58,483 nucleotides of DNA from NCBI GenBank assembly GCA_036566625.1, contig DATCWB010000576.1, positions 1 to 58,483 on the forward strand, given 5' to 3'. Below, piece after piece: positions 315 to 41,500 of the stretch (its first letter is position 1; the number at the start of each line of letters is the position of its first letter). Position numbers and translations under genes: made by a program. This DNA is from Pyrinomonadaceae bacterium. GTDB taxonomy: Bacteria; Acidobacteriota; Blastocatellia; Pyrinomonadales; Pyrinomonadaceae. The notes under the pieces are model-generated. The model saw nothing but the letters and a program-made list of their open reading frames with translations, did not search any database and was not told the DNA's origin.

Positions 315-1070
315 ATGCTCCCCGTAATTCTTGGTTTGCTTGGTGCAGCGTCCCCTTTTATTCTCAACCACATAAACGCCGAGAGCGCCAGGCTTGCCGC
401 AGAGGCAGCCCACCGGGAGTCCGAGATTAATAAAGCCAGGGAAATCTTCGATGACGTGAATGGCACGATGGACAAACTGGCTTATCTCAGTAAGGCCGTG
501 ATGTTCAGTATCATTTTTCGTGATCTCAATGAGGCGACTGTGGGTGAACCGCCGGCCATTGCCCCGAATGGCATGATCCAGCCAGGAGCGAGACCTAAAC
601 CGACCAGCAAAGGGCCGACCGGTGAGGATGTGGCGACCTATTGGAGCTACAAAAGCGAATTGATGAAGTGGGAAAGCTCTTCTGCAACTAACTATGCGCA
701 CGTCGAGAGTTACTTCGGAGAGGAGTGCGCCGAGACTTTCAAAACAATTCGAGATGACTTTGAGACGTTAGTCAGACAACTCGACGCGGCTTTTTACAAA
801 AGGAAAACCAGTCTCGACTTTATTGAGGATTTAGAAGTTAAGGGCAAAGTTCCACCTAATGCCACAAACGATTTCCGAACAAAGTATTTCGATATATGGA
901 ATGATTTGCATGCGAATATGATCGCACTCTCCCAGGATATGATCAAGGCAATCCAGCACGGAACAGTTGGCTCGCTTGGATTGCCGGAGACCAATGAAGC
1001 TCAAGCAGAACTAAAACGTCTAAGTCCGCCAAAGAAGAATAAACCCGTCAAACTCGCCGCAACGCGGTAG
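315..1070 (+). CDS. hypothetical protein, 251 aa, N-terminal hydrophobic segment; no family recognised
   Basis: ATG preceded by a strong SD. The N-terminus MLPVILGLLGAASPFIL looks like a signal or TM segment. The rest is charged and helical-looking with a basic tail (PPKKNKPVKLAATR). It is convergent with the cluster, and its 3' half has a noticeably lower GC (about 40% in stretches) than the cluster. Confidence 0.6.
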   Translation: MLPVILGLLGAASPFILNHINAESARLAAEAAHRESEINKAREIFDDVNGTMDKLAYLSKAVMFSIIFRDLNEATVGEPPAIAPNGMIQPGARPKPTSKGPTGEDVATYWSYKSELMKWESSSATNYAHVESYFGEECAETFKTIRDDFETLVRQLDAAFYKRKTSLDFIEDLEVKGKVPPNATNDFRTKYFDIWNDLHANMIALSQDMIKAIQHGTVGSLGLPETNEAQAELKRLSPPKKNKPVKLAATR

Positions 1071-1129
1071 ATCATCCTCATCCACTCAAGTGCGTGTCCT
1101 GCGCGACTGACCGTGGAGTGTCTCTCATT

Positions 1130-2161: not shown

Positions 2162-2167
2162 TGGAGG

Positions 2168-2173
2168 CTCCTT
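2168..2173 (-). promoter_or_regulatory. Shine-Dalgarno AAGGAG for the hydroxylase gene
   Basis: Minus-strand AAGGAG (plus-strand ctcctt at 2168-2173), 6 nt before the ATG at 2161. Confidence 0.6.
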
Positions 2174-2185
2174 GGTTTTAAATAG

Positions 2186-10969: not shown

Positions 10970-10986
10970 GAGATTTTCGAGCGATC

Positions 10987-23373: not shown

Positions 23374-26300
23374 TTACAATGTCCCCGCTGAAGGCGGAAG
23401 CTCGGAGAGCTTAGATTCAGCCTGTTCGTCAGTCATGTTCTCCAAGCCTTCAAGTAGTTGTGCGAGTTCGTCGTAGTCGTGGCCTTCAAGTGTCTGTTCG
23501 AGCCACACCGCGGACAGTTCGGCGATCGTTTGATTCTGGAATAAATCGTTCAACTCCAGCCTGGCTCCATACCCCTGTCTCAAACGCGCAAGGATTTGCG
23601 TCGCCAGCAGCGAGTGACCGCCCAGATCGAAAAAATTGTCGTGGATGCCGATCCTGGATACTCCCAGTAACTCCTGCCAGATTTCGGCCAACACCGTTTC
23701 CTGCTCGTTGCTCGGCGCAACATATTCGCAACCGAGATCGGGGCGTTCATGACGCGGCAGTGTGTCATCACCGATGGGCATATCGTTTAGCTCAGGGCTG
23801 TCTTGTGGAGCAGCCAGCAAAACCGCTGAGCGCGTGGCGACGGTTTGCTCAGGTTTGCGTGGTTCGATCCAATATCGCTGTCGCTGAAACGGATACGTCG
23901 GCAAAGGAATTCGTCGGCGACGCTCGTCTCGGTAGTAGCTCGGCCAATCAACCGGCGCGCCCGACAACCAGAGTTGCCCCAGGGTCGCCAGTAGGAACTG
24001 CTGATCGTCTACTGTCTCAGTGGCGTGGGGCAAAGTCGTGTGACATTGAGGCTGGGGCACTGCGCCGATCTGCCTAGCTAGCCCAGTTAAGACCCGACCC
24101 GGCCCGACTTCCAACAGGATGTAAGGCAACTCGGCCAGCAGGGTTTTGAGTCCCGCCGAGAAGCGCACGGTGTTTCGCAAGTGATCAGACCAATAGGCCG
24201 GCCGAACCGCATCTTGCGCGTTGATCCAATCCCCGGTGAGATTTGAAATAAAAGGAATCTGCGGCGGGCTTAGGCGAATGCTCTCCATTGCCTGCTGAAA
24301 CGGCTTGAGCATCGGTTCCATCATCGAAGAGTGAAAAGCATGCGAGGTGTAGAGCCGCTTGCAGATCAAATTCCGTTCGTTAAGCCGCGCCTCAAACTCT
24401 TCCGCGGCGGCGACGGAGCCTGAAACAATGCACATTGATTGGCTGTTGACCGCGGCGATCTCAAGCAGCCCTGCAACCAGCGGCCGAACCTCATCTTCGG
24501 GGAGCGACACGGCCAACATCACGCCCGGTTGCATGGACTGCATCAAACGCCCGCGCGCCGCGACGATCTTCAGCGCATCCGGCAACGAGAAAACACCCGC
24601 GAGACAGGCCGCTACGTATTCACCGATACTGTGCCCGATCATCGCCGCCGGCCGGATGCCCCAACTGTGCCACAGCTTAGCCAGAGAATACTCGACCGCG
24701 AACAGCGACGGCTGGGCAACGGCGGTCTGTTGCAGTTCGGCGTCGTCCGCCTCTGCCGGTTCCGCAAACAGGATTCTTCTCAAGTCGCGCCCCAGTTCCG
24801 GCTCCAATAGTTCGGCACAGCGATCAATTTCTTCGCGGAATGTCTGTTCTCGTTCGTAGAGATCACGCGCCATTCCCGGATACTGGCTGCCCTGTCCGGG
24901 GAACATGAAGGCGATGCTTTGGGCGTTGTCCGCCACACCCGTCCGGATGCGCTTCGACTCTTCGAGCGCGGCGATTGCCTCGGGAACGCTAGTGGCGGAT
25001 AAAACCGCTCGCCGATTAAACGTTCGCCGGCCGAGTTGAAGCGTGTAGGCCACGTCGGGCAGGTTGGCGTGAGGGTGCGACCTGAGATGATTCGCCAGCC
25101 GCCGGATGGAATCCTCAAGAGCCGAGGGTGTTCTGGCCGACAACATCAAAAGCTGATGGGGACGTGAAGGAGCAACTGCCTGCTCGGTCGGCGCTTCTTC
25201 GATGATCGCGTGTGCGTTCGTTCCGCCGACGCCAAACGAACTGATTCCTGCGCGGCGCGGATGATGCTCGCCGCGCGGCCATTCTTTTAGCTGACTGACG
25301 ACATAAAACGGACTCTCTTCCAGACGGAGCTTGGGATTTGGCAGTTGGAAATGAAGGCTCGGCGCAAGTTGACCGTGTCTCATCCCCAGCACGATTTTCA
25401 TTAGACCCGCCAGGCCGGCCGCGGTATCGGCGTGGCCGATGTTCGATTTTACCGAACCCAATCCGCAATAGCCCATTCGCTGCGTGCTTTTGCGAAACGC
25501 ATGTGTCAGCCCTTCAACTTCAATCGGATCGCCCAGCGGTGTGGCCGTTCCGTGTGCTTCGACGTAGGAAATCGTATCGGGGTCTACCCCGGCTATTTCC
25601 AGCGCTTCGCAGATGACTGCGGTCTGGCCTTCGATACTTGGCGCCGTATAACCAACTTTCTCACGGCCATCATTATTGACGGCCGTTCCCTTCACCACCG
25701 CGTAGATGGTGTCGCCGGCGGCGCGTGCGTCATCCAAACGTTTAAGCACTACGGTCGCCACTCCGTTGCCGTCAATCAATCCACTGGGCGTGGCATCGAA
25801 CGGGCGACAACGCCCGTCAGGTGAATAGGCCGCGCCGGCTTCATAGATGTGACCCACCTTTTGCGGGAAGTGCACGGTGACCGCGCCAACCAGAGCCATG
25901 TCGGATTGGTGAGTCAGCAGATTCTGGCAGGCGAAATGGAGTGAGACCAGAGACGAAGAACACGCGGTACTAATGTTGACGCCGACGCCTTTCAGGTTCA
26001 TGGCATAGGCGATACGAGTGGCGACAAAATCCTTGTCGTTGCAGATAGACAGGTGAAAGCCGCCGACCTTAAGCGCGAGACCGGGGTGCGAGCAAATATT
26101 AAACGGCAGATAAGTGTTCAGCCCGGTGCTCGTAAATACTGAAATCCGGCCGTCGTATTTCTCGGAATCGTAACCCGCGTCTTCCAGCGCTTCCCAGGCG
26201 CATTCCATCAGTAAGCGATGTTGCGGGTCCATCAGCTCGGCTTCGCGGGGAGAGATTCCAAAAAACGCGGCGTCAAACATATCCGCATCATCCAGAACTC

Positions 26301-26508
26301 CCTTTGCGCCGACGAAATCGGGATGGCGGATCACTTCCAGGGGGAACCCCGAATCGAGCAACTCCTCTTCCGTAAAGTGTCCGATAGAGTCCACGCCGCT
26401 CCGGAGGTTCCGCCAGAACTTATCCAAATCGGACGCGCCCGGAAATCGTCCCGCCATTCCTATGATCGCGATGTCGTAACTTTCTTCGTGTGAGTTTTCA
26501 GTGCTCAT
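23374..26508 (-). CDS. single-module PKS: KS-AT-T, no reductive domains (1044 aa)
   Basis: Motifs: STACSSS, HGTAT, NIGH (KS); GHSIGE, HAFH (AT); FFDLGGHSL (PCP-type carrier). It starts 11 nt after the upstream stop. Confidence 0.95.
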   Translation of the reverse strand: MSTENSHEESYDIAIIGMAGRFPGASDLDKFWRNLRSGVDSIGHFTEEELLDSGFPLEVIRHPDFVGAKGVLDDADMFDAAFFGISPREAELMDPQHRLLMECAWEALEDAGYDSEKYDGRISVFTSTGLNTYLPFNICSHPGLALKVGGFHLSICNDKDFVATRIAYAMNLKGVGVNISTACSSSLVSLHFACQNLLTHQSDMALVGAVTVHFPQKVGHIYEAGAAYSPDGRCRPFDATPSGLIDGNGVATVVLKRLDDARAAGDTIYAVVKGTAVNNDGREKVGYTAPSIEGQTAVICEALEIAGVDPDTISYVEAHGTATPLGDPIEVEGLTHAFRKSTQRMGYCGLGSVKSNIGHADTAAGLAGLMKIVLGMRHGQLAPSLHFQLPNPKLRLEESPFYVVSQLKEWPRGEHHPRRAGISSFGVGGTNAHAIIEEAPTEQAVAPSRPHQLLMLSARTPSALEDSIRRLANHLRSHPHANLPDVAYTLQLGRRTFNRRAVLSATSVPEAIAALEESKRIRTGVADNAQSIAFMFPGQGSQYPGMARDLYEREQTFREEIDRCAELLEPELGRDLRRILFAEPAEADDAELQQTAVAQPSLFAVEYSLAKLWHSWGIRPAAMIGHSIGEYVAACLAGVFSLPDALKIVAARGRLMQSMQPGVMLAVSLPEDEVRPLVAGLLEIAAVNSQSMCIVSGSVAAAEEFEARLNERNLICKRLYTSHAFHSSMMEPMLKPFQQAMESIRLSPPQIPFISNLTGDWINAQDAVRPAYWSDHLRNTVRFSAGLKTLLAELPYILLEVGPGRVLTGLARQIGAVPQPQCHTTLPHATETVDDQQFLLATLGQLWLSGAPVDWPSYYRDERRRRIPLPTYPFQRQRYWIEPRKPEQTVATRSAVLLAAPQDSPELNDMPIGDDTLPRHERPDLGCEYVAPSNEQETVLAEIWQELLGVSRIGIHDNFFDLGGHSLLATQILARLRQGYGARLELNDLFQNQTIAELSAVWLEQTLEGHDYDELAQLLEGLENMTDEQAESKLSELPPSAGTL
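23500..26478 (-). other. PKS module 6: KS-AT-T (no reduction)
   Basis: KS 25195-26478 (Cys183). AT 23929-24915 (Ser627; HAFH). PCP-type carrier 23500-23715 (Ser966). Confidence 0.85.
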
Positions 26509-26519: not shown

Positions 26520-29500
26520 TCAGGTGTTGATGCGTTTGCGTTTATTCGCCAGTTTTCGCCAGGACTCTTTTTGCTGTACCACTCGCCGGTGCATTTCAGC
26601 GTCGCCGTTTGGCGGCGGCTCTTCGGAGTGGCCGAGGAACTCTGCGAGTGATCGGATGGTCGGATACTTGAAGAGGTCTAAGACCTGGAATTTGCCGTTG
26701 TTGAGGCTCTCCATGCGACGATACGCTTCGACTGCCAGCAGCGAATTACCGCCCAAGTCAAAGAAGTTGTCATGAACGCCAACCCGGTCGAGGTTGAGAA
26801 CGTTGCGGTGAATTTCGGCTAGAGCCCGTTCCAAGTCGTTTCGCGGCGCAGCGAATTCCGCCGACTGTTCGGGACGTTGGCGATCCGGCGGGGGAAGCGA
26901 CGCACGGTCAACCTTACCGTTCGTCGTCAAGGGCATCCTATCCAGCCTGACGAACGCCGATGGGATCATGTAATCGGGCAGCAGTCGCTTTAATTCATCG
27001 CGGAGCTTGCCAACCGACATCGCATCGCCATCGGCCGGACGAACATAAGCGACGAGGCGCGGGTTGCCGGGTTCATCTTCGCGGAGCACCACGACCGCTT
27101 CGACAATTTCCGGGCGCTGGAGCAATACGGACTCGATCTCCCCCAACTCAATGCGGAAGCCGCGCAACTTGATTTGTCCGTCGGTGCGGCCAAGATATTC
27201 CAGATTACCGTCCGCCAGATAACAAGCGCGGTCACCCGTCTTGTAGAGCCGCTCGCCCGGTAGCCCAAAACCACCCCGGCCTGCAAATGGATCGGGGACG
27301 AAAGATGTCGCGGTCAAGTCAGGCCGCCCCAAATAGCCACGCGCCAGGCCGGCGCCGCCGATGTAGAGTTCGCCCGCAACACCCACGGGCGTGAGTTGCA
27401 AGTGGTCATCGAGCACATAGAGCCGAGTGCCACTGATCGGTCGTCCAATCGGCACCGTATGTTCCGGCGGCTCGCTGAAGTCATGCGCGCAGCAACCCAC
27501 CACCGTTTCCGTGGGGCCATATTCATTAACAATGTGGAGCCGCCCATTTCGCGTCCAGCGATCAAGCGCGCGAGGCGAGATCGCTTCGCCCCCCAGGATG
27601 AGCCGCTGTGTGCCGTAGGCATCGGGTGCGTCGGTGAGGAGACGATTGAGCACGTCCAGGTGGGCGGGCGTGATCTTGATAAACCGGTAATTGGAACCAC
27701 GGCGGAGCGCATCGGCCAGCGCGGTCAACTCTTCGCCTTCGGGCAACAAGTCCACCTGCCCGCCGGCCATCAGAGGCACAAAGAGACTTGTGATCGTGGC
27801 GTCGAACCCGATTGAGCCGACCACAGGTGCAGTACCACCGTCGGGCATGTAGGCGTGCTCTGCCCAAAGCAGGTAGTTGGTCAGGCCGCGATGCGGAATG
27901 ACGACGCCTTTCGGCCGGCCGGTCGAGCCGGATGTGTACATGACATAGGCCGGATGGTCGAGATCGGCCGGGACGTTGGGATTGACTTTCGACTCACGGG
28001 CAAGAGGATCGCCTTCCTGATCGAGACAGAAAACTGCGCCGGGAGTTTTCGGCAGTTCCGCCAACAACTCACGTTGCGTAAGGAGCATCGCGATTTGGGC
28101 GTCGTCTCGTATCTGTTCGAGACGCGACGCTGGATATGCCGGGTCCATGGGGACATAGGCTGCGCCCGTTTTTAGCGTCCCAAGCAAAGCGACAAAAAGA
28201 TCGACTGATCGCCTGACACAGATGCCCACACGCTGTTCCGCACCGACTCCCGACCGGCGCAGGAAATGCGCCAACCGGTTTGCCCGCTCATTCAATTCGC
28301 GATATGAGATTTGAACCCCGTGCGGCGATTTGTCGCTAACCGCGATGGCGTCGGGTCGGCGTTCCGCCTGCGACTCGAAAAGTTGGTGGACGCATTGATC
28401 CACTCTTTGAGATTCCGTGTCGTTCCAGGCACGCAGCCGTTCTTGTCGCATCGCCGCGTCCAGCAACGGAAGCGTATGCAGATCGGCATCGGGATTCTCA
28501 ACGACACTCTCCAGCAGCGTTTTGTAATGAATCAAAAAGCGGTCAATCGTCGCCGCATTGAAGAGATCGGTATTGTAGTCGCATTCCAGAGTGATGCCCT
28601 CGTTGACGAGATTTGCCGTGAGGGTCAAGTCCATGCGGGCAAAGTTGACGTGCCTCTCGTATCGCGCGATCTGCAAGCCTCCCTCTGAAGATTCGCCCGT
28701 CGGCCGCTCAAGGTTGAAGATCGTCGAAATCAACGGGCTGCGGCTAATGTCGCGTTTCAGATTCAGTTTGTTAAGCAGACGCGCAAACGGGTAGTCCTGA
28801 TGTTGATAGGCGTCGAGGAGCGTGCTGCGCACGCGACGCAGGTGCTCGCTAAAAGGCATGCCCGCAGGCGACCCGGTAATGGTACTGACGATGGGAAGCA
28901 GGTGCGCGCAATAGCCGACGAGACTATCACCACCCTCCATTGCCCGGCCGGCGTAAGGGCAGCCGACGACGACCGTTTCCCGGCCGGTGAGTCGGTGAAG
29001 CAGCACCGTGTACACCGCCAGCAGCAGCATGAACGGTGTGTAGCCGCGCGAGCCGGCGAGTTTCGTCAACCGAGTGGTCAGTGTCTTGTCGATTGCCAAC
29101 TGCCGGATCGCGCCGTCGAACGTCTTGACGGCAGGCCGTGGACGGTCTGTTGGCAAATCGGCTGCGGCGGGCAGCTTCTCGAATTGTCGCAGCCAGTAGT
29201 TTTCATGCTCCTTCATCGCGGGCGACGATCTCTGTCCCTCGTGCCACCGAACAAACTCGCGGTACTGGAGCGGAGGTTCCAAGGCCGCCGCCGTGCCGCG
29301 CCGCCGTGCGACGTAACACGCGTCGATCTCATTGATCACGTTCATCATCGACATGCCGTCGGTGAGCAAGTGATGTGATCCCAAAATCAGTACGTGCCGT
29401 TCGGCCGCCACCTTGAGCAGCGTGGCCGTGAAAATTGGACCGTTCACAAAATCGATCAACGTCCGATTGAATTGATCCAGATGCTTACGCACCTCATCCT

Positions 29501-32500
29501 CCGAATCCTCGGCAGCGGAGACATCGAAAATTTGCAACGCCACGGGCGCGGGAGGATGGATGATGAGGCGGTCGCCAATTGGATCGACCGTGGTGCGGAG
29601 TGATTCGTGGCGGGCGACAACCTGATTCAGAGAGGCGGTCAAAGCGTCCGGGTCTATCTCGCCCTCGATAATCAGCACGGCAGGATCGTTGTAAGCTCTG
29701 GCTCCGTCGTCGGACACCTTCGTCAACAGCCAAAGCTGTTGCTGCGCTTCGCTCATCGGAAACGACACCGTACCGGATTGGCCGGAAGGAGCCGCCCAGC
29801 ACTTCCGCAATTCGTTAAGCGGCGGTAGACCACGCAACGCCGATTCGGTGGGAACGCCGAAGTCTACGAAGCACGCAATTTCGTCCACGCCCGCCGCAAT
29901 CAGATTTTCCAAGAGGGGGCGACAAGTGTCGGGCGAACCGATCAGCGCGCTGAACGCGACATATTTGTCGTACGCCTTCTGCACGATGTACTCACGATCT
30001 TCGGCCGACAACCCATCCAGGTCGATTGCCAAACTCTGGCTTTGCGCTAGGCGTTTGAAAAGCGTCATGGACGACAGCAAATAATCACACAGCGGCCGGC
30101 GAGCTTCACGGATGGCCTGCTCGGCATCTTCGCGGACGTACGTATGCAGTAAGACGGTTACATTACCCGCCTGCGGGTCGTGCCCGAATTCGGCGCGCGC
30201 CGCACGGTAGATTGCGATGTTGGCGGTCAACTCCTCAAGGGTTTGTCCCATCAGGTTTGTCAGTACGCCGACGCCCAACTCGCCCGCTTTGCGGTAAGTC
30301 TCCTGGTTGTTTACGATAGTGAGCCAACAGGGTAGTTCTGTCTGCCTGGGCAACGGGTGGAGCTTTAGATCGACATCTTTACCGGTGCCGTCGCGCAGCG
30401 ACAACGGTTCGCCCCTCCAGGCTCGGCGCACGGCCTCCATACCCTCAAACGTGAGTTCGCGCTGCCTGCCATAGCTCTGGGGGGCGAACACAAAATCATT
30501 CGGGTGCCAACCCGAAGCAAATGCGACGCCGACTCGACCGCCGGCCAGATTATCAACCAGCGACCATTCCTCGGCCACGCGCATCGGGTGATGCAGCGGC
30601 ATCACAACGCTACCGGCACGTAGTTGGACGCGTTTCGTTTCCCGGGACAGGGCGGCAGCCAGCACCGAGGGATTAGGCGAGAGGCCGCCGAATTCATGGA
30701 AATGCCGCTCGGGAACCCAGACGGCCTGAAATCCTTCGGCGTCGGCAAAGCGTGCTCCTCCGATCAACAACTCGTATTTGCTTGGAGAATAGGCGGCCTC
30801 GTACGTTCCGAAATATGAGAGGCTAAAAGCGAGCGGCTTGTTAGTACTGCGACGCGCCGTATCGCCGGCTACGGCGACCGCTTCTCCGCGTTGTCCCAGC
30901 TTGGACTTGCCGCGGTTCCAGAATCCCCTCCCGTTTCCGTTGTCTGCCGGGTGACCATTCGAGCCGCCCGTTTGTTTGTCGCTTCGAACCGGCATCCTGC
31001 ACTCGGCGGACACGGGCGTGGTGGGGCGGCCAGTCGGTTCGCGCGGAGGCAGAAATCCCCCTGCGCGCAAGTCCGCGACGCTCTCCTTAACGGCCTGAAC
31101 AACGCGTTCGAGTTCCTCATCTGTGTGCGCGGTTGAAAGAAAACAATTGCGCCACTCCCAGATGTAAATTCCCTTTGCCAGCATGTGGTAAAAAAAGAGT
31201 TCCAGGTTGCCGGAGAACTCGAAACGAAAGAAAGACGAGAAATGCGAGACGCGAATCGGCAATTCTTCACCGGCAAAAAATGTGTTCAGAGTCTCGGCGA
31301 ATTTGTCCGTGCGCTGATTCAGAGTTGTTTGCAGTGACGCCCCCCGGGCTACGAGGTGTCGGAGCACGGCCAGCGACGCAGCCATGGTGATGGGGTGTTG
31401 GCAAAATGTGCCGCCGAAGTAAGTTCGCGCCGCGCCCGGATATGAATTGTCGCCGAATCGCCACATGCCGCCGTCGATTCCGTTCAGAAAACGGGCGCTG
31501 CCGGCGACCGCGCCGATTGGCATGCCGCCGCCCAGGATTTTTCCGTAGGTGGCGATGTCGGCATCAATGCCGAACAGTCCCTGACAACCCGCCGGATGCG
31601 CCCGGAATCCGGTAATCATTTCGTCGAAAATCAACGCCGTTCCGGCTGCTTCGGTAAGCGCGCGCAATTCACGCAGGAAGGAGACGGGTTGAAAGTCAGG
31701 CCGGCGACTCTGCACCGGCTCGACCAACACGGCCGCCAACTCCTGCGCATGATCGCGGAGTATCTCTAACGACTGCGGCGAACCGTATTCCAGCACGAGT
31801 ACGTCACGCGCCACGTTAGCGGGAATACCGGGCGCTACCGGTTCGGAACTCAGATGATCACGTCCCCGCTGCGCCAGCGTGCCGTCCGAGTGACCGTGAT
31901 AGGAGCCCTCGAACAAAGCGATTTTAGAGCGGCCGGTGGCTGCTCGCGCCAAACGCAACGCGGTCATCACGGCCTCGGTTCCCGAGTTGGTAAACACGAC
32001 GCGCTCCGTGCCGGTCAGCTTGAGGAACAGACCGGTGACTTCCTCCATCAGGTCTGACCGCATACCCAGTTGAATTCCGCGCTGAAGCTCGTCGGCGATT
32101 GCCTGACAAACAAAATCGGGACGGCTGCCAAACAGCAATGCCCCGAAACCCATCGTCAAATCGATGTAGGTGTTTCCGTCCACATCCTTGAGCGAGGAAC
32201 CGAGCGCTTCCGCACCGGTGATCGGGTAAAGAATCTCCTTGGTCGAAAAACGAAATCCCACCGTGGCGCGGCTGTCGGCCAGACCGGCGCGGCAAGATTG
32301 AGCGAGCGCTTTAGACCGCTCTGTCCTGCTCGTAAACCGGCGAATGAAATCGTCGAGACTGCTCTGTTGTTGTTCGGTCATCCCGGTCGATTTAGCAGTG
32401 ACCGGATACCTGATGTCCTTGAGCGGTGAAGAGCGAGCCGTGGACACACTCGACGCAACGGTGTCGCCGGCATCATTCGCGCGCGGCGCAAACGGAGTCT

Positions 32501-35500
32501 CCACCGGCGTTGTGACTTCACCGGCAGCCTGGGAGGTTCGGGATGTAATAGCCGGTTGGGATGTAACGGATGCGCGCTGCAACAAATCCAGTTGGCGCGA
32601 CATCAACTCCATCTGAGCTTGAATGATGCGGGGGAGTTCCGAACCGAAGGCGTTGCCGATTGGTTCGGGCGACGCAACCGGCCGAGCGGCCTCCGGCAAA
32701 CTGATGCTTCCCACACTCGGCGCGGGGGGCATGGTTGCCACAGGTGTCGCGGACGCAGAGTTCGACACGGACGGTGTTTGAACGTCGGCCGGGGGCGGCA
32801 CGCGGTCGGCAATAAATTCGGCCAACGACGCGACCGTCGTGATCTCTTCGAAGAACTGCCGGATTTCCAGTTTCACCCGAAACCGTTCATCGATCTGTTT
32901 GACGGCATAGACAAGGATCAGCGAGTCTGCACCCATTTCCAGGAACGGAACGTCAAGGGGCACATTGGCCGGCTGTTCGCGAAGCATTTCGGCAACGAGT
33001 CGGATGATGTCCGTCTTGACGGATTCGCGATGGCCTCGCAGTCTGTCGGCTTCAGATACTATCGGTTCGGTTGACGCTGGCGTCATGATCTCATCTCGCT
33101 CTTTGATCCAATAACGCTTCCGTTGAAAGCGGTAGGTTGGTAAGTGAAGGCGTTGACGAGGAATGGACTCGTCGAGCTTTGCCCAGTTAACCTCAATTCC
33201 ATTGACGTAGGCCACAGCCAGACTCGCCAGCGGCAACTGCCACTCGTCGCCCTTTCCGCTCATCGAAGGCAACCACAGCGAACATGGCTTTATCTGTCCG
33301 GCGAGTTTCGATAACTCCCGGCTCAAGCCGATCTCAATAAACGGCCCATCGCGATCTTCCGTCAGCGAGTTGATGGTTTCGCGCGGATCGGGAACTGCCG
33401 CCTGAAACCGCCGTTGCCAGTAGGCCGCGTCGAACGCGATGCCTTCCGCAAGCGGCCGTCCATCAGGCCAGATCGCAATTTGCGGCGCTCTAAACCTCAC
33501 TCCATGCGCATGTGTCGCGATGTCATCGCGAGAAGACAGCCGCGCACGTTCCCACACCAACCGGAGACCATCCTCCAAATCAAACACGCCTGCGATACAA
33601 GCGGCGCAAAGCTCGCCCAGCCCGCGACCCGAAACGGCGAGCGGGCGAATTCCGAATGATTGCCACAAGGCGGCCAGGGCATACAGCAATGCGAACTGCG
33701 CGGAGAGCCGGTAAGTCGGTTGCCGCAAACGTTCGTCGTCTTCTGCGAACAAGACGGCCGAGATCGTGGCATCCATATCGGAGTGGCGCGCTGCGTCGCA
33801 AGAATCTATGGCCGAGCGGAACACGGCGCTGGTCTCGTACAGTTCGCGCCCGGTTCCCGGGTTCAACTCCTCGGCATCGGAAAATACGAACACTGGACTG
33901 GCGAGATTCGAGGAAGTCTCGCCGGCAAGAAACAATCCCGGCGTCTGTTGGCCGTTGCGAATTCCGGCAAGGCCGACGTGGAGGTCTTCGATACGGGAGG
34001 CACGGATGGCCGCTCGATGTTTGAAATGACTGCGACCGCAATTTGCGGTGTAACAGATATCGGCGATGGCATCGTCCGTCTGCTCCGCTAGGAACTCTTC
34101 ATACCTCGCGGCCAGTTCCGCCAACGCAGTTGGGGTCTTGGCCGAGAGCGTCAGCACATGCGCCCGCCGGTCCCGCTCCGGCGGCGCGACGGATACGGAC
34201 GGCGATTCCTCAAGGATCAAGTGTGCGTTCGAGCCGCTGACGCCGAAAGAACTCAGCGCGGCAAAACGGCGTTTGACGCCCCGCGGCCAATCAACGGGTT
34301 CACGCACCGGCCGTAGATTCATGCCGTCCCAATCGATCTTGGGATTCGGTTGATTGATGTGCAGGGTCGGTGGAATCCGGTCGTTACACATCGCCAGCAC
34401 CAGCTTGATCAGGCCGGTCACTCCGGCCGCCGACTCCAGGTGGCCGATATTCGATTTAACGGAACCGATCCACAGCGGCCGCTCGCGCGCGGCGTCGCGT
34501 CCCAGCACCGCGCCCAACGCGCCGGCCTCAATAGGATCGCCGAGCGCGGTTCCGGTTCCATGCGATTCGACATAATCGATCTCGGCGGGCGCGACGCCGG
34601 CCACCTCCAATGTACGCCGGATCAGAGCCTGCTGAGCAATGCCGTTGGGCACGGAAAATCCGCTGCTCGCGCCGTCCTGATTGATGGCTGTTCCGCGAAT
34701 GAGAGCCAGTATGCGGTCGCCGGCTTGCAACGCATCCGACAGCCTTCTCAGCACGACTATGCCGCAGCCCTCACCGCGTACGTATCCATCGGCTGAGGCG
34801 TCAAACGTCTTGCAGCGTCCGTCCGGAGCGACCATTTGCGCCGCGGCCAATGTGACGTTAGGCCAACTGGCGAGGATCAGGTTGACGCCGCCGGCCAACG
34901 CCATGTCGCATTCACGGTTTCGTAGTGACGAACATGCAAGGTGGATTGTGGTCAGCGACGATGAACAGGCCGTATCAATTGCCATGGACGGTCCCTGCAA
35001 ACCCAGCACGTAGGATACTCGTCCGGCGCAGGCGTTCAGCGCGGCGCCCGTGTTGAAATAGGGATCGTCGGGCAGCTTGTTCTGCTCCAGTTGCAGGCAG
35101 GCGTAGTCGCTCGCAGTGACCCCGACGAACACGCCCGTTAGCGTAGCTTTAAGCGACGACGGCGCAATTCCGGCGTGTTCGAGCGCTTCCCACGCAACTT
35201 CGAGCAGCAATCGCTGCTGCGGATCGACGGTCGCCGCCTCCCGCGCAGAGATGCCGAAGAACGCCGCGTCGAATGATTCCACGTTGTCCAGAAAGCCGCC
35301 GCGGCGGCTGTAAACTTTGCCCGGCATACCCGGCCGTGGATCGTAAAGCGCGTCTACATTCCAACGTTCGCGAGGCACTTCCGTGATCGCATCACGTCCC
35401 TGAGACAGCAATTCCCAAAAGGCGGCGGGGCTATCAGCCGCAGGCAAACGGCAACCCAGCCCAACGACGGCGATTGGCTCGGAGCGGGTAGCCCGTGCAG

Positions 35501-35597
35501 CGTCGAGTTGTTCTCGCAATTTGCGGATTGTGAGAAACGCTTTTTGGAGGGCGGTCAGTTCGCTGGTATTGGGGGTTTCCTGCTTCACATTCTTCAT
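26520..35597 (-). CDS. hybrid PKS-NRPS: KS-AT0-ACP-aminotransferase-LLM monooxygenase-C-A-T (3025 aa)
   Basis: Motifs: DTACSSS/HGTGT/NIGH (KS); degenerate AT (GRGLG); GADSL (ACP); class-III PLP aminotransferase (GSYHGHSDG, YGKILGGG); luciferase-like monooxygenase (WVPERHFHEFGG, VAEEWSLVDNLAGGRV); SHHLLTDGMS (C); YTSGSTGRPKG (A); GGNSL (T). Its ATG overlaps the upstream stop (ATGA). Confidence 0.95.
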   Translation of the reverse strand: MKNVKQETPNTSELTALQKAFLTIRKLREQLDAARATRSEPIAVVGLGCRLPAADSPAAFWELLSQGRDAITEVPRERWNVDALYDPRPGMPGKVYSRRGGFLDNVESFDAAFFGISAREAATVDPQQRLLLEVAWEALEHAGIAPSSLKATLTGVFVGVTASDYACLQLEQNKLPDDPYFNTGAALNACAGRVSYVLGLQGPSMAIDTACSSSLTTIHLACSSLRNRECDMALAGGVNLILASWPNVTLAAAQMVAPDGRCKTFDASADGYVRGEGCGIVVLRRLSDALQAGDRILALIRGTAINQDGASSGFSVPNGIAQQALIRRTLEVAGVAPAEIDYVESHGTGTALGDPIEAGALGAVLGRDAARERPLWIGSVKSNIGHLESAAGVTGLIKLVLAMCNDRIPPTLHINQPNPKIDWDGMNLRPVREPVDWPRGVKRRFAALSSFGVSGSNAHLILEESPSVSVAPPERDRRAHVLTLSAKTPTALAELAARYEEFLAEQTDDAIADICYTANCGRSHFKHRAAIRASRIEDLHVGLAGIRNGQQTPGLFLAGETSSNLASPVFVFSDAEELNPGTGRELYETSAVFRSAIDSCDAARHSDMDATISAVLFAEDDERLRQPTYRLSAQFALLYALAALWQSFGIRPLAVSGRGLGELCAACIAGVFDLEDGLRLVWERARLSSRDDIATHAHGVRFRAPQIAIWPDGRPLAEGIAFDAAYWQRRFQAAVPDPRETINSLTEDRDGPFIEIGLSRELSKLAGQIKPCSLWLPSMSGKGDEWQLPLASLAVAYVNGIEVNWAKLDESIPRQRLHLPTYRFQRKRYWIKERDEIMTPASTEPIVSEADRLRGHRESVKTDIIRLVAEMLREQPANVPLDVPFLEMGADSLILVYAVKQIDERFRVKLEIRQFFEEITTVASLAEFIADRVPPPADVQTPSVSNSASATPVATMPPAPSVGSISLPEAARPVASPEPIGNAFGSELPRIIQAQMELMSRQLDLLQRASVTSQPAITSRTSQAAGEVTTPVETPFAPRANDAGDTVASSVSTARSSPLKDIRYPVTAKSTGMTEQQQSSLDDFIRRFTSRTERSKALAQSCRAGLADSRATVGFRFSTKEILYPITGAEALGSSLKDVDGNTYIDLTMGFGALLFGSRPDFVCQAIADELQRGIQLGMRSDLMEEVTGLFLKLTGTERVVFTNSGTEAVMTALRLARAATGRSKIALFEGSYHGHSDGTLAQRGRDHLSSEPVAPGIPANVARDVLVLEYGSPQSLEILRDHAQELAAVLVEPVQSRRPDFQPVSFLRELRALTEAAGTALIFDEMITGFRAHPAGCQGLFGIDADIATYGKILGGGMPIGAVAGSARFLNGIDGGMWRFGDNSYPGAARTYFGGTFCQHPITMAASLAVLRHLVARGASLQTTLNQRTDKFAETLNTFFAGEELPIRVSHFSSFFRFEFSGNLELFFYHMLAKGIYIWEWRNCFLSTAHTDEELERVVQAVKESVADLRAGGFLPPREPTGRPTTPVSAECRMPVRSDKQTGGSNGHPADNGNGRGFWNRGKSKLGQRGEAVAVAGDTARRSTNKPLAFSLSYFGTYEAAYSPSKYELLIGGARFADAEGFQAVWVPERHFHEFGGLSPNPSVLAAALSRETKRVQLRAGSVVMPLHHPMRVAEEWSLVDNLAGGRVGVAFASGWHPNDFVFAPQSYGRQRELTFEGMEAVRRAWRGEPLSLRDGTGKDVDLKLHPLPRQTELPCWLTIVNNQETYRKAGELGVGVLTNLMGQTLEELTANIAIYRAARAEFGHDPQAGNVTVLLHTYVREDAEQAIREARRPLCDYLLSSMTLFKRLAQSQSLAIDLDGLSAEDREYIVQKAYDKYVAFSALIGSPDTCRPLLENLIAAGVDEIACFVDFGVPTESALRGLPPLNELRKCWAAPSGQSGTVSFPMSEAQQQLWLLTKVSDDGARAYNDPAVLIIEGEIDPDALTASLNQVVARHESLRTTVDPIGDRLIIHPPAPVALQIFDVSAAEDSEDEVRKHLDQFNRTLIDFVNGPIFTATLLKVAAERHVLILGSHHLLTDGMSMMNVINEIDACYVARRRGTAAALEPPLQYREFVRWHEGQRSSPAMKEHENYWLRQFEKLPAAADLPTDRPRPAVKTFDGAIRQLAIDKTLTTRLTKLAGSRGYTPFMLLLAVYTVLLHRLTGRETVVVGCPYAGRAMEGGDSLVGYCAHLLPIVSTITGSPAGMPFSEHLRRVRSTLLDAYQHQDYPFARLLNKLNLKRDISRSPLISTIFNLERPTGESSEGGLQIARYERHVNFARMDLTLTANLVNEGITLECDYNTDLFNAATIDRFLIHYKTLLESVVENPDADLHTLPLLDAAMRQERLRAWNDTESQRVDQCVHQLFESQAERRPDAIAVSDKSPHGVQISYRELNERANRLAHFLRRSGVGAEQRVGICVRRSVDLFVALLGTLKTGAAYVPMDPAYPASRLEQIRDDAQIAMLLTQRELLAELPKTPGAVFCLDQEGDPLARESKVNPNVPADLDHPAYVMYTSGSTGRPKGVVIPHRGLTNYLLWAEHAYMPDGGTAPVVGSIGFDATITSLFVPLMAGGQVDLLPEGEELTALADALRRGSNYRFIKITPAHLDVLNRLLTDAPDAYGTQRLILGGEAISPRALDRWTRNGRLHIVNEYGPTETVVGCCAHDFSEPPEHTVPIGRPISGTRLYVLDDHLQLTPVGVAGELYIGGAGLARGYLGRPDLTATSFVPDPFAGRGGFGLPGERLYKTGDRACYLADGNLEYLGRTDGQIKLRGFRIELGEIESVLLQRPEIVEAVVVLREDEPGNPRLVAYVRPADGDAMSVGKLRDELKRLLPDYMIPSAFVRLDRMPLTTNGKVDRASLPPPDRQRPEQSAEFAAPRNDLERALAEIHRNVLNLDRVGVHDNFFDLGGNSLLAVEAYRRMESLNNGKFQVLDLFKYPTIRSLAEFLGHSEEPPPNGDAEMHRRVVQQKESWRKLANKRKRINT
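26628..29765 (-). other. NRPS module 5: C-A-T, Asn-like specificity code
   Basis: C 28443-29765 (SHHLLTDGMS). A 26883-28400; the 10-residue code read by alignment to GrsA-PheA is DATKIGEVGK, close to remembered Asn codes DATKVGEVGK and DLTKLGEVGK. T 26628-26846 (GGNSL, Ser2952). Confidence 0.8.
29793..35480 (-). other. PKS module 4 with amination/oxygenation: KS-AT0-ACP-AMT-LLM
   Basis: KS 34203-35480 (Cys211 at nt 34965-34967). Degenerate AT 33153-33902 (GRGLG at nt 33615-33629). ACP 32808-33035 (Ser892). Aminotransferase 31053-32375 (PLP Lys1353 at nt 31539-31541). Luciferase-like monooxygenase 29793-30836. Confidence 0.85.
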
Positions 35598-38500
35598 TCC
35601 AAATTGAGCGCTTTCATTTCCTCATCGATCAATGCGGCGATCTGTTCATCGAGCAAGTCTTCGACCCGGCATTCATCAAGCAGGGCTTGGGGGGCCGGGC
35701 GGATGTTCGTCAGTGTGTGCGAGTCGGTTTCGTCCGTTTCGCTTTCCGGGAACAGTTGTTGGAGCAGATGTTCGACGAGGGCTGCGACCGTCGGGTAATC
35801 AAAACAGAGCGAGGACGGGAACTCGCGCCCCACCAGCTGTTGAATCCGATCCTTGATCTGGACGGCCATCAACGAATCCACACCGAGGTCAAAGAACCCC
35901 ACTTCGCGCTCGACAACCTGATCTCCGTCGAGACGCAACACATCCGAGACCAGCGATTGCACCTGACGAGCCAACCGTTCAAATCGTTCGCTCCGCGCCA
36001 TCGCCCGCAAATCGTTCACCAGCGGCGACTGGCCGGTTCCCGCGACAGGCGTTGTTTGCCCGCCAAAGTTATCGAATAAAGGCCGCCGTCCGTGCACCTC
36101 GTAAAGGTTCTTCAAACGCGTCCAATCCACATCGACAACCGCGACGCGACTTTCTCGCGAAGCCAAAAGTTGACCCAACGTGGAAAGCGCCTGTTCAGGC
36201 CGAAGCAAACGAAGTCCTCCGTCCGCGACCCGGCTCCCCCCATCAAGCGTTGACATGCCATCGCCGGCCCATGGCCCCCAGTTGATGGACAGCCCCGGCA
36301 GCCCTCGCCCTCGCCGATACTCGACGAAGCCATCGAGAAAAGCATTGGCCGCCGCATAATGCGCCTGGCTCGCGCTGCCCCACACCGCCGAGATGGACGA
36401 GAAGCAAATGAAAAAGTCGAGGTGCAAAGTCTCGGTGAGTTGATGCAGATTCAAAGCGCCCACGATCTTAGGAGCAAGCGTGCCCATCAACTGTGGCTGT
36501 TTCAATTCCTCGATGGAACACTGCTCGTTGACTCCGGCGGCGTGTACAACTCCCTTGAGTTGGAAAGAATTCGCGGCGAGCGTATCCCGCAGGGCTGCCA
36601 CGTCGGCTTTGTTCGTCACGTCGCCCCGCACAGACAACACACGACATCCTCTTTCTTTCAGGGAACGCAGTGCATTCAACGACCCGTCGGAAGGTTCGCT
36701 GCGGCTCATCAAGACCAGGCAGCCCGCGCCCAGTTCGGCCAGGAACCGAGCCACCTGTAGACCCAGCGCCCCGCAGCCGCCGGTGATCAAATAAGCACCA
36801 TCATCGGATAATCTGACCGTCGGCGATTCAGCCGGGCGATAAGACTCCAAACGGCTCACGTAGCGTTGATTATCGCGCCAGACCACGCAGTCTTCGCCTC
36901 TCGGATTGAGAAGTTCGTCTCTTACGCTGTTCGCCAGGTCTTCACCCTTGAAATCATCCAGGTCAATCAAACCACCTTTACATTTAGGGTGTTCGAGGAA
37001 TAGGCAACGTCCCAGGCCGAGGAGCGCGGTGGCGAACGGCGAGTTCAATTCTGCTGACCCGGCGGATGTTGCCCCTCGCGTCGCCAGCCACAATTTGGGC
37101 GTGCTATCGAGCGCCGCAACAGCCCGCGACAAGTGCACCACTCTGGAGAGTCCGAAATCGCCGACTCCTGAACTTGCGGCTTCCATGTCGGCAGTTGGCT
37201 CCCACAGATACACGATGCCTTCCAACTTACCGACCGTTTCCAACAATCTGCGATGGCCGTCCGACGAGTCGGATTCGATTGACCAACGGGTGTCGCTCAG
37301 GCGTTGAAACCCTGAACCGGGCGACGCGAAAATCACGCGGCGTCCGGTTGCCTCCAATGAGCGGGAGAGTTCCGGCCATTCGTGATCCGCGAGTATCAAC
37401 CATTGTCCTGTACCGTCGGCGATCACCGCGCGCTCAAGAGGTTTCTCCTGCCACACTGCCCGGTAACACAACTCTGCGGAATTAAACCAGTGGCGTTGAC
37501 GCTGGAACGGGTAGGTCGGCAATTTCGTTTGCCGCTCGAAACGACCTCGATAATAGGCAGACCAATCCACCGCTGCGCCGTGAACGAACAACTGTCCGAG
37601 AGTTTCCAGGCATTGACGGTGGTCTGAGACCTTTGGCCGCAGGCTGGGCAAAAAGATGGCTTTCGTGCCCGGCCGAGTTTCGGTCTCACTTTCGGTCTCG
37701 GCCAGCGACGATAAAACGGGTTGAGGACCAACTTCGACAAACAAACGTCCGTCTGCGTTGCGAAGTGTCTTGAGGGCGAGGTCAAACCGAACCGGCATTC
37801 GGACATGACTCACCCAATACTCCGGATTCGTAACTTCGTCCTGAACCAAATTGCCGGACACGCAGGAAACGAATCCAATTTCCGGTCGCCGGTATGAAAT
37901 CGAGCTTGCCACCGGGCGGAATAGTTCGAGGACAGGATCGGTAAGCGGTGAATGGAAGGCGTGTGAGACGTTAAGCTCTCTGGCCGTAATACCCCGAGCT
38001 TGCAGCGACGCAACGATCAGGGCGACAGCCTGCCTTTCGCCGGAGACGACGACGTGCCTGGCTCCGTTGACGGCGGCGATTGAAACTCGGGCGCGATGGG
38101 AGTCGATGGCTGCTGCGACGATTTGCTCAGGTGCGAAGATCGCGAACATGGCTCCGTCACGAGGCAGTTCTGAAAGAAGTCGGCCACGCTCGGCAATTAA
38201 GCGTAAGCCGTCCTCCGGACTGAATACGCCTGCCACTGCTGCGGCGACGTATTCGCCCACACTGTGTCCCGCAACAACGTCCGGCGTCACGCCCCATGAT
38301 CTCCACAATTCGGCGAGTGCATACTCCAGAACAAACAGCGCGGGCTGCGTGTAAGCCGTGTCATTCAGGAGATTCGGTTCCGCCGGTGACGAGCCGGCTT
38401 CCGGAAACAGAACCCTCAGCAGCGGGACTTTCAACTTCCGGTCGAGCGACATCGCTAGCCGGTCAACGATTTCGCGAAAAACAGGTTCGTCATCGTAAAG

Positions 38501-41500
38501 TTGCCGCCCCATGCCGGGATACTGACAACCTTGTCCGGTAAAGAGAAAGCCCACCCCGGTCTTATTCTGGCGGGCGATAACCCGCCCGGATGCTCCCGGT
38601 GCGATGCACGACTGACCGGCTGCGAACGACTCCAACGCGGTTCGCAGGGCGTCAGTTGAATCGCCGATGAGGAACAGGCGGTAATCGAAGCGGTCTTTGA
38701 AAATCGCAGCCGTTGCACAGGCATCGCCGAGGCGTTCATCTGGAAGTTCCAACAGCCGTGCGGCATAGCGGCGAGCAAGTTCTCGCAGCGCCGTCTCGTT
38801 GTGCGCGGAAAGCGCAAGACCATAGTGGTTGCGAGAAGCAGGCGGTGGCGGCGAATCCGTCGAGGCCGCCTGCGGTTGTGGAGCTTCTTCCACAATCAAG
38901 TGTGCGTTTGTGCCACTAAAGCTGAATGAACTGACGCCCGCGATCCGCTTGTTGGTCGCGTGCCAAAACATTCTTTGGGCGGCGACTTTGATTGGAAGTT
39001 TGTCCCAGTCAATATGCGGGTTCGGGGTTTCGAAATGCAGGCTGGGCACGAATTCGTTGCCCTGCATGCAGAGGATCGTCTTGATCAAACTAGCCACACC
39101 GGCCGCCGACTCCAAATGCCCAATGTTACTCTTGACCGTGCCGATCCAGAGTGGGTTATCAACGGCGCGGTCGCCGAAAACGCCGTGCAACGCCTCGACC
39201 TCGATAGGGTCGCCCAGCGAGGTGCCTGTCCCATGCGCTTCGACGTAACTTACCTGCTCGGGCGCAACGCCGGCCACACTCAGGGCGCGGCGGATGACGG
39301 TTGATTGCGACGGACCATTCGGGACGGTCAAACCGCCCGAGCGACCATCCTGGTTAACGGCCGATCCGCGAATCACGGCGAGGACGGGATCGCCGGCCGC
39401 AAGGGCGCTGGAAAGTCGTTTCAGCACCACGATCCCACAACCCTCCGAACGAACATATCCGTCCGCACGGGCATCGAACGCCTTGCATCGTCCGTCAGGC
39501 GCGAGCATGTGAGCTTTGGAGAAATTGATGGACATCTCGGGGCGCAGCAAATAATTGACGCCGCCGGCCAGCGCCATTTCGCATTCTCCCGTTCGGATAC
39601 TCTGGCAGGCAGTGTGGACGGCGACCAGCGCCGACGAGCAGGCTGTGTCCAACGAAATACTGGGACCCTTAAAACCTAAGAAATAAGAGAGACGCCCTGA
39701 TGCTGAACTGTGCGCGTTACCCGTTCCCAGATAGGCGTCGATGCGTTCAACGTCGCCGCCGCTCACGAGGCTAAAGTAGTCGTTGCCCGTTATCCCGATA
39801 AAGACACCTGTATTAGTGCCGGCGTGTTCGCTCGGCACCAGCCCCGAGTTTTCGAGCGCCTCCCAACTGACCTCAAGCAACATGCGATGTTGTGGGTCGA
39901 GGCTCTTTGCCTCGCGGGGCGTGATCTCGAAAAACGCCGTATCGAAGCCCTCGCAGCCGTGGACGAATCCACCATGCCGGCAATTGATTTTTCCCGGCGT
40001 GTCGGGGTTCGGGTCATACCAGGCATTCACGTCCCAGCGGTCGGGGGGAACTTCGGTAATCGCATCGCGCCCTGCACGCAGCAATTCCCAGAAGGCTTCC
40101 GGGCTGTCCGCGCCGCCGGGAAATCGGCAACCCATACCGATCACCGCTATCGGATCATTTGATAAACCCGCCACGCCCGCCGACGAAGCGACTGAATTGC
40201 GCGACGCCCGCAAAGCGCGAAGAGCGCGTTTTGCCGGCGAGAGACTGGGTGCTGTGGCGTCGAGCGATTCGCTGCCGTTTGAGTGAGTGGCGATGGCTTC
40301 GAGTTCGCGCACGAGTAGCGTGGTCGCTTGCTCGTCGGAGAGTTCGTCCAGATCGGAAGCGTCGCTTGCAGCCTCCTCGGAAGCATCCGGTCGCAGACGA
40401 TCACCCACCCTCGTCGCCAGATATTCGGCCAACGGCGCGACGCTCGGGTAGTCAAAGGCGATAGTGGCGGGCAAGGTTTGTCCGAGTCCCTTCTGCAACC
40501 TGTTCTTTAATTCAATGGACGTTAACGAATCCATGCCCATTTGGATAAAAGTTCGACTGTCCGATACTTCATCGGCCGACTCCAATCCGAGCACCGCAGC
40601 GACTTGTTGCGCTACATGCTGTCGCAGCCAGGCGTTAACTTCTTTGGGGCTCTTGCTCTCCAGCGAGTCGAGGATGCCGGGGGTGTCGTCGATGGTCGGC
40701 GCGCCGTTCGATTGCCCGCGACTCTGCGCTAAGACTGCGAACAGAGGCGAAACAGAATGCTGAGCCTCGAAGAACCTTCCCCAATCGACGGGCACGACAC
40801 CGAGTTGACTATGGCCGCAGCTCAAAGCGCGCTCAAGGGCAGCGGCTCCTTGCGCGGGCGTCAGCAAGCCGATTCCCCTGTTGTGCAGGAAGCTACGCGC
40901 GCCGATACGCGCCGCATGGCCGATCTCGGCCCAGCCTCCCCAGTTGATACTGACGGCCGGCAATTGCTCGGCTCGTCGTGCGGCGGCCAGCGCGTCAAGA
41001 AACGCGTTGGCGCTCACATAGTTTGCCTGACCGGCCGAACCGAAGAGGGAGGCCGCGGATGAATAGGCGACGAAAAAGTCGAGCGGGAGATCGCGCGATT
41101 GTTCGTGCAGATGCCATGCGCCCGCGACCTTCGGCGACAGCACGGTGGCAAACCTTGCGGCCGTTAGTTCCTGTAAACTGCCGTCGTCAAAAATCCCGGC
41201 CGCGTGAATGATTCCCCGCAACGGAGGAAGCGTCTTCGAGAACTCCGCAAAAAGCTCTGCCACCTGCTTCCGGTCTGAAACGTCGGCCTGCCGGATCGTA
41301 ACTTGAGCGCCCGCGTCTTGCAGTCGCGCAAGTCGCTCGGAAGTCTCAGGCCGCGCGCTATGCCTTGATACCAGCATCAAATTCCGCGCCCCATGGTTGA
41401 CCAGCCACTCGGCCGCGTGCAGGCCGAGGTCGCCCAGACCACCCGTGATCAAATAGCACGCATCGCCGTGGCATTCGAATTCGACCTGCGGTGCTGTAGC

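Follow-up and report, generated by a model that had tools for sequence, protein, structure and literature searches.

In the iturin and mycosubtilin assembly lines, the malonyl-CoA transacylase ItuD/FenF loads the second acyl carrier protein (ACP) of ItuA/MycA ahead of the ketosynthase (KS) and aminotransferase (AMT) steps (PMC11751314). Polyketide synthases (PKSs) of the trans-acyltransferase (trans-AT) type carry KSs with their KS-AT and post-AT linkers in the absence of a working acyltransferase (AT), the ACP being loaded separately (PMC11907408), and AT-null module 6 of DEBS, an engineered system, is rescued by the fatty-acid transacylase of S. coelicolor as well as by a number of trans-ATs (PMC6164871). 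ATs that are dead or absent, and their complementation in trans, are already known. Here we describe a related situation in a 58,483-nucleotide stretch of DNA from a Pyrinomonadaceae bacterium (contig DATCWB010000576.1, hereafter the window), which amounts to a single hybrid cluster of PKS and nonribosomal peptide synthetase (NRPS) genes, with the synthetase genes (A to F) all on the minus strand. In one module, encoded by gene C, the AT is reduced to a dead half domain, which we call AT0. What is new in this locus is a natural half-AT under selection, a series of intact, dead and excised ATs in one orthologous module, and the lack of a linked AT.

Gene C and MycA/ItuA have in common a KS, no working cis-AT, an ACP, a class-III AMT and a terminal block of condensation, adenylation and peptidyl carrier protein domains (C-A-PCP). 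They differ in that fenF/ituD lies directly upstream of the synthetase, whereas neither the window nor the 10-kb flanks of its relatives hold such a gene; in that MycA begins with an acyl ligase-ACP for a fatty acid, whereas gene C takes a polyketide from cis-AT modules; and in that gene C has an extra monooxygenase (MOX) domain. Moreover, the AT loss in gene C is recent and traceable to orthologues with intact ATs, so the resemblance is convergent. The original prediction had named MycA and FenF as its precedent; as a functional analogy this holds, but not as homology, nor as regards an adjacent AT gene. By analogy, then, the gene C module acts like MycA/ItuA without being a member of that family.

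The likeness to trans-AT PKSs and to AT-null DEBS module 6 lies in the separately loaded, AT-less module, an architecture that four relatives of the window (L010, L012, L041 and P0010) have exactly. However, five of the six modules here keep their cis-ATs, the cluster comes with neither a stand-alone AT gene nor an acyl hydrolase gene, and half an AT, still folded, is left in the window. Judged by its domain content, the cluster is not a canonical trans-AT PKS.

Its closest described counterparts are the microsclerodermin (msc) lines of Jahnella sp. MSr9139 and of Sorangium cellulosum So ce38, which, according to a pathway review (PMC6163206), share its PKS modules, the order ACP-AMT-MOX-C-A-PCP, a stand-alone KS-AT-ACP, NRPS modules and a terminal C-A-PCP-KS-AT-KR-ACP-TE (KR, ketoreductase; TE, thioesterase). 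Over 76% of its length, gene C shares 52% identity with the ACP-AMT-MOX-C-A-PCP protein of Jahnella sp. MSr9139 (P0123), and downstream of it we found the stand-alone KS-AT-ACP, an NRPS with an N-methyltransferase and the same terminal C-A-PCP-KS-AT-KR-ACP-TE protein. The Jahnella protein differs in that it begins at the ACP, its KS being on another protein; the loading region of gene A (adenylation, KR-like, methyltransferase and ACP) differs as well, and the host is a soil or biocrust acidobacterium rather than a myxobacterium. The window contains no mscE (amidohydrolase), mscL (halogenase), type II thioesterase (TEII) or transporter genes; a related contig has TEII and ABC-transporter genes downstream of the cluster. 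By its predicted architecture and by homology, we place the cluster among the msc-type assembly lines.

We then considered what remains of AT0. The original prediction had placed a truncated AT at 33153-33902, equivalent to residues 566-815 of the gene C product, with FVFSDAEEL in place of the N-terminal GQG motif and AVSGRGLGE at the active site; both strings are present (aa 570-578 and 654-662), in the latter the GHSxG motif reading GRGLG. Its estimate of about 250 aa for the AT-like span was right as to the shortening, but that span takes in most of the post-AT linker. Pfam Acyl_transf_1 (PF00698) matches aa 571-693 only, i.e., profile positions 3-125 of 319 (E 4.8e-16). A hidden Markov model (HMM) trained on the five intact ATs of the window matches AT0 in two pieces, positions 10-142 (E 8.7e-31) and 227-362 (E 2.2e-15), leaving about 84 positions (143-226) absent, and in a sequence alignment to the AT structure of CurL (PDB 4mz0), CurL residues 711-800 have no counterpart; the C-terminal piece aligns with CurL residues 801-936. 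The HAFH region is thus missing, as had been proposed, together with the ferredoxin-like small subdomain and the beginning of the helix that follows. When AT0 was aligned by MAFFT with the other five ATs of the window, all five were found to be intact, keeping GQGxQ, GHSxG, the Arg and SHAFHS, and AT0 alone showed SDAEE, GRGLG and the deletion; with its post-AT linker it measures ~263 aa, compared to 353-369 aa in the intact copies. A residual THAH in the window's AT0 reads AQAR in the closest genome, a Pyrinomonadaceae metagenome-assembled genome (MAG; L005), and is not conserved.

The shortening is not an assembly artefact, as 32800-34200 is spanned, without a joint or a single difference, by independently assembled Logan contigs from three sequencing runs. 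Nor is the lost subdomain to be found in another frame or at another site of the window: the junction leaves no spare DNA, and nothing in the window matches HMM positions 143-226. Since AT0 has lost the Ser nucleophile and the His of GHS, the oxyanion motif GQG, the small subdomain and the His of HAFH, it is predicted to be unable to transfer malonate. Of a competent AT it retains the large alpha/beta subdomain fold, and it is, by every motif compared, a catalytically dead remnant consisting of this subdomain and the post-AT linker.

This remnant nonetheless appears to be maintained. The stub, which has no frameshift, is found with an identical junction in the window and in two diverged relatives (92% and about 87% identical); it reads GRGLG in the 92%-identical gene of a 76-kb soil contig (P0530/P0531) and GRGFGE in L005, which is gap-free across the region. 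We compared the window with L005 (dS about 0.5) and obtained a ratio of nonsynonymous to synonymous substitution rates (dN/dS) of 0.18 for AT0, near that of the structured KS-AT linker (0.20), against 0.42-0.50 for the flexible interdomain linkers; the KS (0.06), ACP (0.07), AMT (0.08) and MOX (0.06) gave lower values. An AlphaFold2 model of aa 560-835 reached a pLDDT of 86.1 and a pTM of 0.85, and its top Foldseek matches were the AT domains of KS-AT didomains (CurL 4mz0 and ZmaA 4qbu), with query-normalised TM scores of 0.78-0.80. These alignments spread the 276-aa query over ~344 columns, which indicates that the small subdomain is absent and that the large subdomain and post-AT linker are present. 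The best explanation of the model and the substitution rates is that the AT0 remnant folds and is held by purifying selection within the KS-linker scaffold.

The same observations bear on the view that the cluster is non-functional and decaying, the broken AT being no more than the earliest lesion to show. In its favour count the lack of transcript data and of a known product. Against this, reading frames are uninterrupted over ~55 kb, the catalytic motifs are kept in all domains other than AT0, gene C as a whole has a dN/dS of 0.15 relative to L005, and of 0.11 when AT-less orthologues are compared with each other, and the frameshift-free stub is common to three diverged lineages. We therefore consider decay very improbable.

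In order to place the inactivation in time, we turned to the orthologues of this module. A full-length AT with GQG, GHSxGE and (T/S)HAFHS is present in ~20 related KS-AT-ACP-AMT loci, which have the domain order of the gene C module and come from, among others, Methylobacter tundripaludum SV96, a Terriglobia MAG and numerous contigs from metagenomes. In SV96 (L006, NZ_JH109153.1, 771260-793095) and in L007, a related cluster carries KS-AT-ACP-AMT with intact ATs, and this cultured methanotroph could be an experimentally tractable reference for the module family. At the other extreme, five loci (P0010/L003, L010, L012, L041 and L051) lack the AT entirely here, the KS-AT linker and the post-AT linker being all that is left, as in trans-AT PKS modules; two further AT-less matches, P0017 and P0005, turned out to belong to unrelated clusters. 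A first search with the whole KS-AT0-ACP segment was dominated by generic KS matches. In a KS tree, the KS of the window groups with those of the cis-AT KS-AT-ACP-AMT orthologues, and the stub carriers together with the AT-less orthologues make up one clade (100/100 bootstraps), sister to the intact-AT clade; the AMT tree agrees. As stub carriers and AT-less orthologues fall in one clade, the AT of gene C was probably inactivated once.

Complete removal seems to have followed more than once. L041 (Ga0126376_10000001), whose KS is 91.5% identical to that of the window and groups with the stub carriers, has its excision breakpoint at ...GETSPS|SMSGNGDEWQ..., with window-like flanks, and the breakpoints of the L010/L012/P0010 branch differ. 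The AT of the module upstream, the second of gene B (B2), is intact in both the window and L005, and is cleanly excised in the AT-less relatives L041, L010, L012, L003 and L051, the breakpoints of L041 and of the L010 branch again being different. Because the breakpoints differ between these lineages, the excisions are independent, and the alignments point to at least four clean excisions after one inactivation, two of the gene C AT and two of the B2 AT. The ATs of the first gene B module (B1) and of gene D are retained in every AT-less relative examined. We also noticed a metagenome relative (L052, locus 995-4343) with the reverse order of loss: its AMT-module AT is intact, and its upstream module shows no AT match.

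Despite the loss of its AT, the module bears the marks of one that still condenses. Its KS is complete, as originally predicted, with the full Cys-His-His set, and has one of the lowest dN/dS values in gene C; the phosphopantetheine Ser892 of the ACP lies in GADSL, and the AMT has its pyridoxal phosphate lysine motif. Between the AT-less L010 and L012 (dS about 0.9), dN/dS is 0.054 for the KS, 0.041 for the ACP and 0.11 for the whole gene, and the triad is intact, which suggests that AT-less versions of the module have long been maintained by selection. Upstream, the NADPH-binding and Tyr motifs of the B2 KR are intact, so gene C would receive a beta-hydroxyacyl and not a beta-keto chain. On these grounds we infer that the gene C module is chain-extending.

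An argument for elongation had been made in the original prediction from the need of the AMT for a freshly made beta-keto group. Its premise of a KR in the upstream module stands; the strict need for a fresh beta-keto group is weakened by the Jahnella msc pathway review (PMC6163206), which has the MOX re-oxidise the beta-hydroxyl prior to amination. On such a scheme, the KS could merely hand the chain on, with the extra C2 unit supplied by upstream stuttering and the beta-hydroxyl re-oxidised by the MOX for the AMT; the same review describes iterative module use, and an inactive AT in irumamycin biosynthesis was interpreted as upstream iteration (PMC11672594). A transfer-only KS, however, needs no decarboxylation histidines, and these are conserved in the window, L005, P0010, L010 and L012 (dN/dS about 0.05-0.06). 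Furthermore, the same domain order in the ~20 intact-AT relatives suggests that the ancestral module was a normal extending one. We regard a non-elongating module as improbable.

Given a dead AT0 together with a maintained KS and ACP, the ACP would have to be loaded by an AT other than the AT domain of gene C, as had been proposed; the constraint on KS and ACP and the existence of AT-less orthologues support this part of the original prediction. We thus arrive at a model in which Ser892 is malonylated by an AT acting in trans, the KS would condense the beta-hydroxyacyl chain from module B2 with the malonyl-ACP, and the AMT would aminate the resulting beta-keto intermediate on Ser892, with the MOX carrying out an oxidation before the chain passes to C-A-PCP.

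The donor was sought around the cluster. As originally noted, the window encodes no free-standing AT, neither by Pfam scans nor by a six-frame scan with the AT HMM. On the 76-kb contig with the same stub, 10 kb of sequence upstream of gene A hold BNR, ferritin-like, tyrosinase and SCO1-like genes but no AT (on L075, 1-9037, ferritin-like, tyrosinase and SCO1/SenC-like genes are followed by an intergenic gap of ~960 bp and gene A); on a 138-kb relative contig, 10 kb of sequence downstream of the hydroxylase gene have phosphotransferase (APH), type II thioesterase, ABC transporter and hydrolase genes and likewise no AT; and none lies in the 2 kb upstream in a Vicinamibacterales MAG. The long contigs of two AT-less relatives, Ga0126376_10000001 (131 kb) and CAZVLS010000002.1 (764 kb), were read within 6-10 kb of gene C. 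A cluster-linked transacylase like fenF/ituD is absent from the window and from the relatives' 10-kb flanks.

Because no AT is linked to the cluster and the AT of the neighbouring module has been lost in close relatives, the likeliest donor, in which we place middling confidence, is a free-standing malonyl-CoA:ACP transacylase whose gene lies in another part of the genome, be it a FabD-type housekeeping enzyme or a dedicated AT at a distance. That the B2 AT was lost repeatedly suggests that a soluble activity renders cis-ATs expendable. Alternatively, the ACP could be malonylated by one of the cluster's own cis-ATs, chiefly that of B2, which docks onto gene C, or that of gene D. In favour of such a donor, the B1 and D ATs are kept in every AT-less relative examined, the lack of a discrete AT in the window and flanks fits equally, and other ATs can cross-complement AT-inactivated modules experimentally (PMC6164871). 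Yet the B2 AT is excluded as general donor, being excised in L041 and the L010 branch, the closest AT-less relatives, and as donor of any kind in L041; repeated, directional loss of cis-ATs fits a soluble activity better, and our literature searches gave no natural cis-AT serving an adjacent module. We consider an in-line cis-AT possible but rather unlikely, and favour the free-standing donor over it.

The ACP itself offers one further clue. Past the phosphopantetheine Ser, its helix II reads DSLVLVE in the intact-AT clade, DSLILVY in the stub carriers and DSLILVH in the L010 branch; the fifth residue past the Ser is thus Glu in all intact-AT orthologues, Tyr in stub carriers and His in the AT-less members of the L010 branch, and the ACP of L041 has DSLVLV across the six residues visible in the alignment. 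This change may reflect a new AT partner; as it represents one or two evolutionary events, we give it no weight. It could also be read as a sign that the ACP loads itself from malonyl-CoA with no AT. Self-malonylation has been reported for some ACPs of type II PKSs and is debated; we know of no precedent among type I modular ACPs. The helix II difference is a single phylogenetic event that a change of AT partner fits at least as well, and self-loading is, to our mind, the least credible of the explanations considered.

Several points weigh against loading by a free-standing transacylase, or against the importance of the stub in it. The search of the window and the relatives' flanks yielded no FabD or other discrete AT candidate, and five intact, malonyl-type cis-ATs with HAFH, which could load the ACP, stand in the same line. 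The published model of MOX re-oxidation (PMC6163206) weakens the claim that elongation is strictly required. Lastly, the constraint on the stub may reflect merely the keeping of an embedded domain foldable, and the stub has proved dispensable in L041 and the L010 branch.

Half-ATs are not confined to this cluster. A search with the stub across 1.84 billion representative proteins revealed at least six unrelated PKSs with a half-AT from which the small subdomain is gone: P0252 (aa ~741-1008), P0253 (1412-1672), P0266 (878-1131), P0285 (196-446), P0344 (565-832) and P0348 (541-826). Among these six, GHSxGE is replaced by GCGLGE, GHDVGE, GSGAGQ, GDGIGE, GNGLGE and GQGIGE; three more half-ATs (P0001, P0002 and P0008, with the motifs GDGPGE, FDGNDGE and GHGVGV) had come from the first homology search. 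The small subdomain is deleted at nearly identical boundaries in the unrelated proteins, while the module contexts vary, including KS-AT0-DH-cMT-KR-ACP (DH, dehydratase; cMT, C-methyltransferase) and KS-AT0-ACP-KS; in P0348, another KS directly follows the half-AT with no ACP between. Long branches dominate a neighbour-joining tree of truncated ATs from unrelated PKSs, which does not separate common origin from convergence. From their sequences, the half-AT seems to be a recurrent domain state, and half-ATs that show GxGxGE for GHSxGE and lack the small subdomain may form an unrecognised and widespread one that possibly still serves as a docking surface.

The features of the cluster are collected in the table below. 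The cluster DNA is present in biocrust and soil metagenomes. Within gene C, a docking helix precedes the KS, and the orthologue P0122 bears the NCBI name of a MupA/Atu3671-family luciferase-like monooxygenase (LLM). The loading region of gene A contains a PRMT5/Methyltransf_25-like methyltransferase, and, outside the family, cyanobacterial A-KR-ACP(-TE) proteins come closest to it; given this region, the starter unit is probably other than the acyl-CoA-ligase/phenylacetate starter described for Jahnella. Genes E and F, as listed, overlap by 70 nt (10987-11056), with a TTG start for gene F; its TubC_N docking domain at aa 27-76 suggests that the actual start may be further downstream. At the edge of the cluster, the 251-aa open reading frame (ORF) has counterparts of at least 90% identity at the same position on three other soil contigs (P0522-P0524; L072-L074), and the 138-kb relative contig has its APH, TEII and ABC-transporter genes in place of this ORF.

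Table. Positions of the cluster genes and of the domains and motifs discussed, in window coordinates; residues are those of the encoded protein
Feature	Position (strand)	Residues	Content and basis
ORF adjoining hydroxylase gene	315-1070 (+)	251 aa	No Pfam match
Hydroxylase gene	1130-2161		Resembles Asp/Asn beta-hydroxylase (Pfam)
Gene F	2186-11056 (-)		C-A-PCP-KS-AT-KR-ACP-TE
Gene E	10987-23313 (-)		NRPS, three modules, one with N-methyltransferase
Gene D	23374-26508 (-)		KS-AT-ACP
Gene D AT	23881..24948 (-)	521-876	Intact; candidate in-line donor
Gene C	26520-35597 (-)	3025 aa	KS-AT0-ACP-AMT-MOX-C-A-PCP; ORF list, translation, Pfam
Gene C, C and A domains	26913..29759 (-)	1947-2895	NRPS, followed by PCP; Pfam
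Gene C, MOX	29883..30776 (-)	1608-1905	Luciferase-like flavin mononucleotide (FMN) monooxygenase; Pfam
Gene C, AMT	31152..32222 (-)	1126-1482	Class-III aminotransferase; Lys1353 in TYGK
Gene C, ACP	32811..33008 (-)	864-929	Ser892 codon at 32922-32924
Gene C, ACP helix II	32880-32921	893-906	Differs between intact-AT and AT-loss clades
Gene C, AT0 large subdomain (C-terminal part) and post-AT linker	33120..33518 (-)	694-826	Ends near PTYRFQRKRYW
Gene C, deletion junction	33498..33536 (-)	688-700	SSRDDIATHAHGV; ~80-84 residues gone
Gene C, AT0 large subdomain (N-terminal part)	33531..33908 (-)	564-689	AT HMM 10-142; Pfam 3-125/319
Gene C, GRGLG	33615..33629 (-)	657-661	GHSxG relic (His to Arg, Ser to Gly); alignments
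Gene C, SDAEE	33867..33881 (-)	573-577	GQGSQ relic; alignments
Gene C, KS-AT linker subdomain	33909..34355 (-)	415-563	Pfam KAsynt_C_assoc, CurL-like_PKS_C, RhiE-like_linker
Gene C, KS	34356..35480 (-)	40-414	Cys211 in DTACSSS (208-214), HGTGT 346-350, NIGH 383-386; Pfam, motif positions
Gene B	35594-46945 (-)		KS-AT-DH-cMT-KR-ACP-KS-AT-KR-ACP
Module B2 KR	36266..36808 (-)		GGCGALG, YAAAN
Module B2 AT	37499..38587 (-)	2787-3149	Intact; GHSVGE, SHAFHS; candidate in-line donor
Gene A	46948-57801 (-)		Adenylation-type loader with KR-like and methyltransferase regions and an ACP, followed by KS-AT-DH-KR-ACP
Gene A loading region	52552-57801	1-1750	Order: adenylation, KR-like, methyltransferase, ACP

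In practical terms, automated annotation may call AT0 an AT, as the Pfam acyltransferase model passes its threshold, and so predict a self-loading module, and a host chosen for heterologous expression must supply the loading activity for the gene C module. The excisions show linker boundaries that tolerate removal of an AT, useful for the engineering of AT-less or AT-swapped modules, and the series of intact, dead-half and excised domains provides a natural experiment on the loss of cis-ATs. One inactivation, a stub kept in one branch, repeated excisions and no linked AT lead us to suggest, tentatively, that a cis-AT line is turning stepwise into a partly trans-AT line. If so, type I modules in these bacteria would be served natively by a FabD-type housekeeping enzyme or by a cis-AT located far off, which would render their cis-ATs expendable; and if the donor is of the FabD type, primary metabolism would natively sustain type I modules, for which support has so far come mainly from engineered systems.

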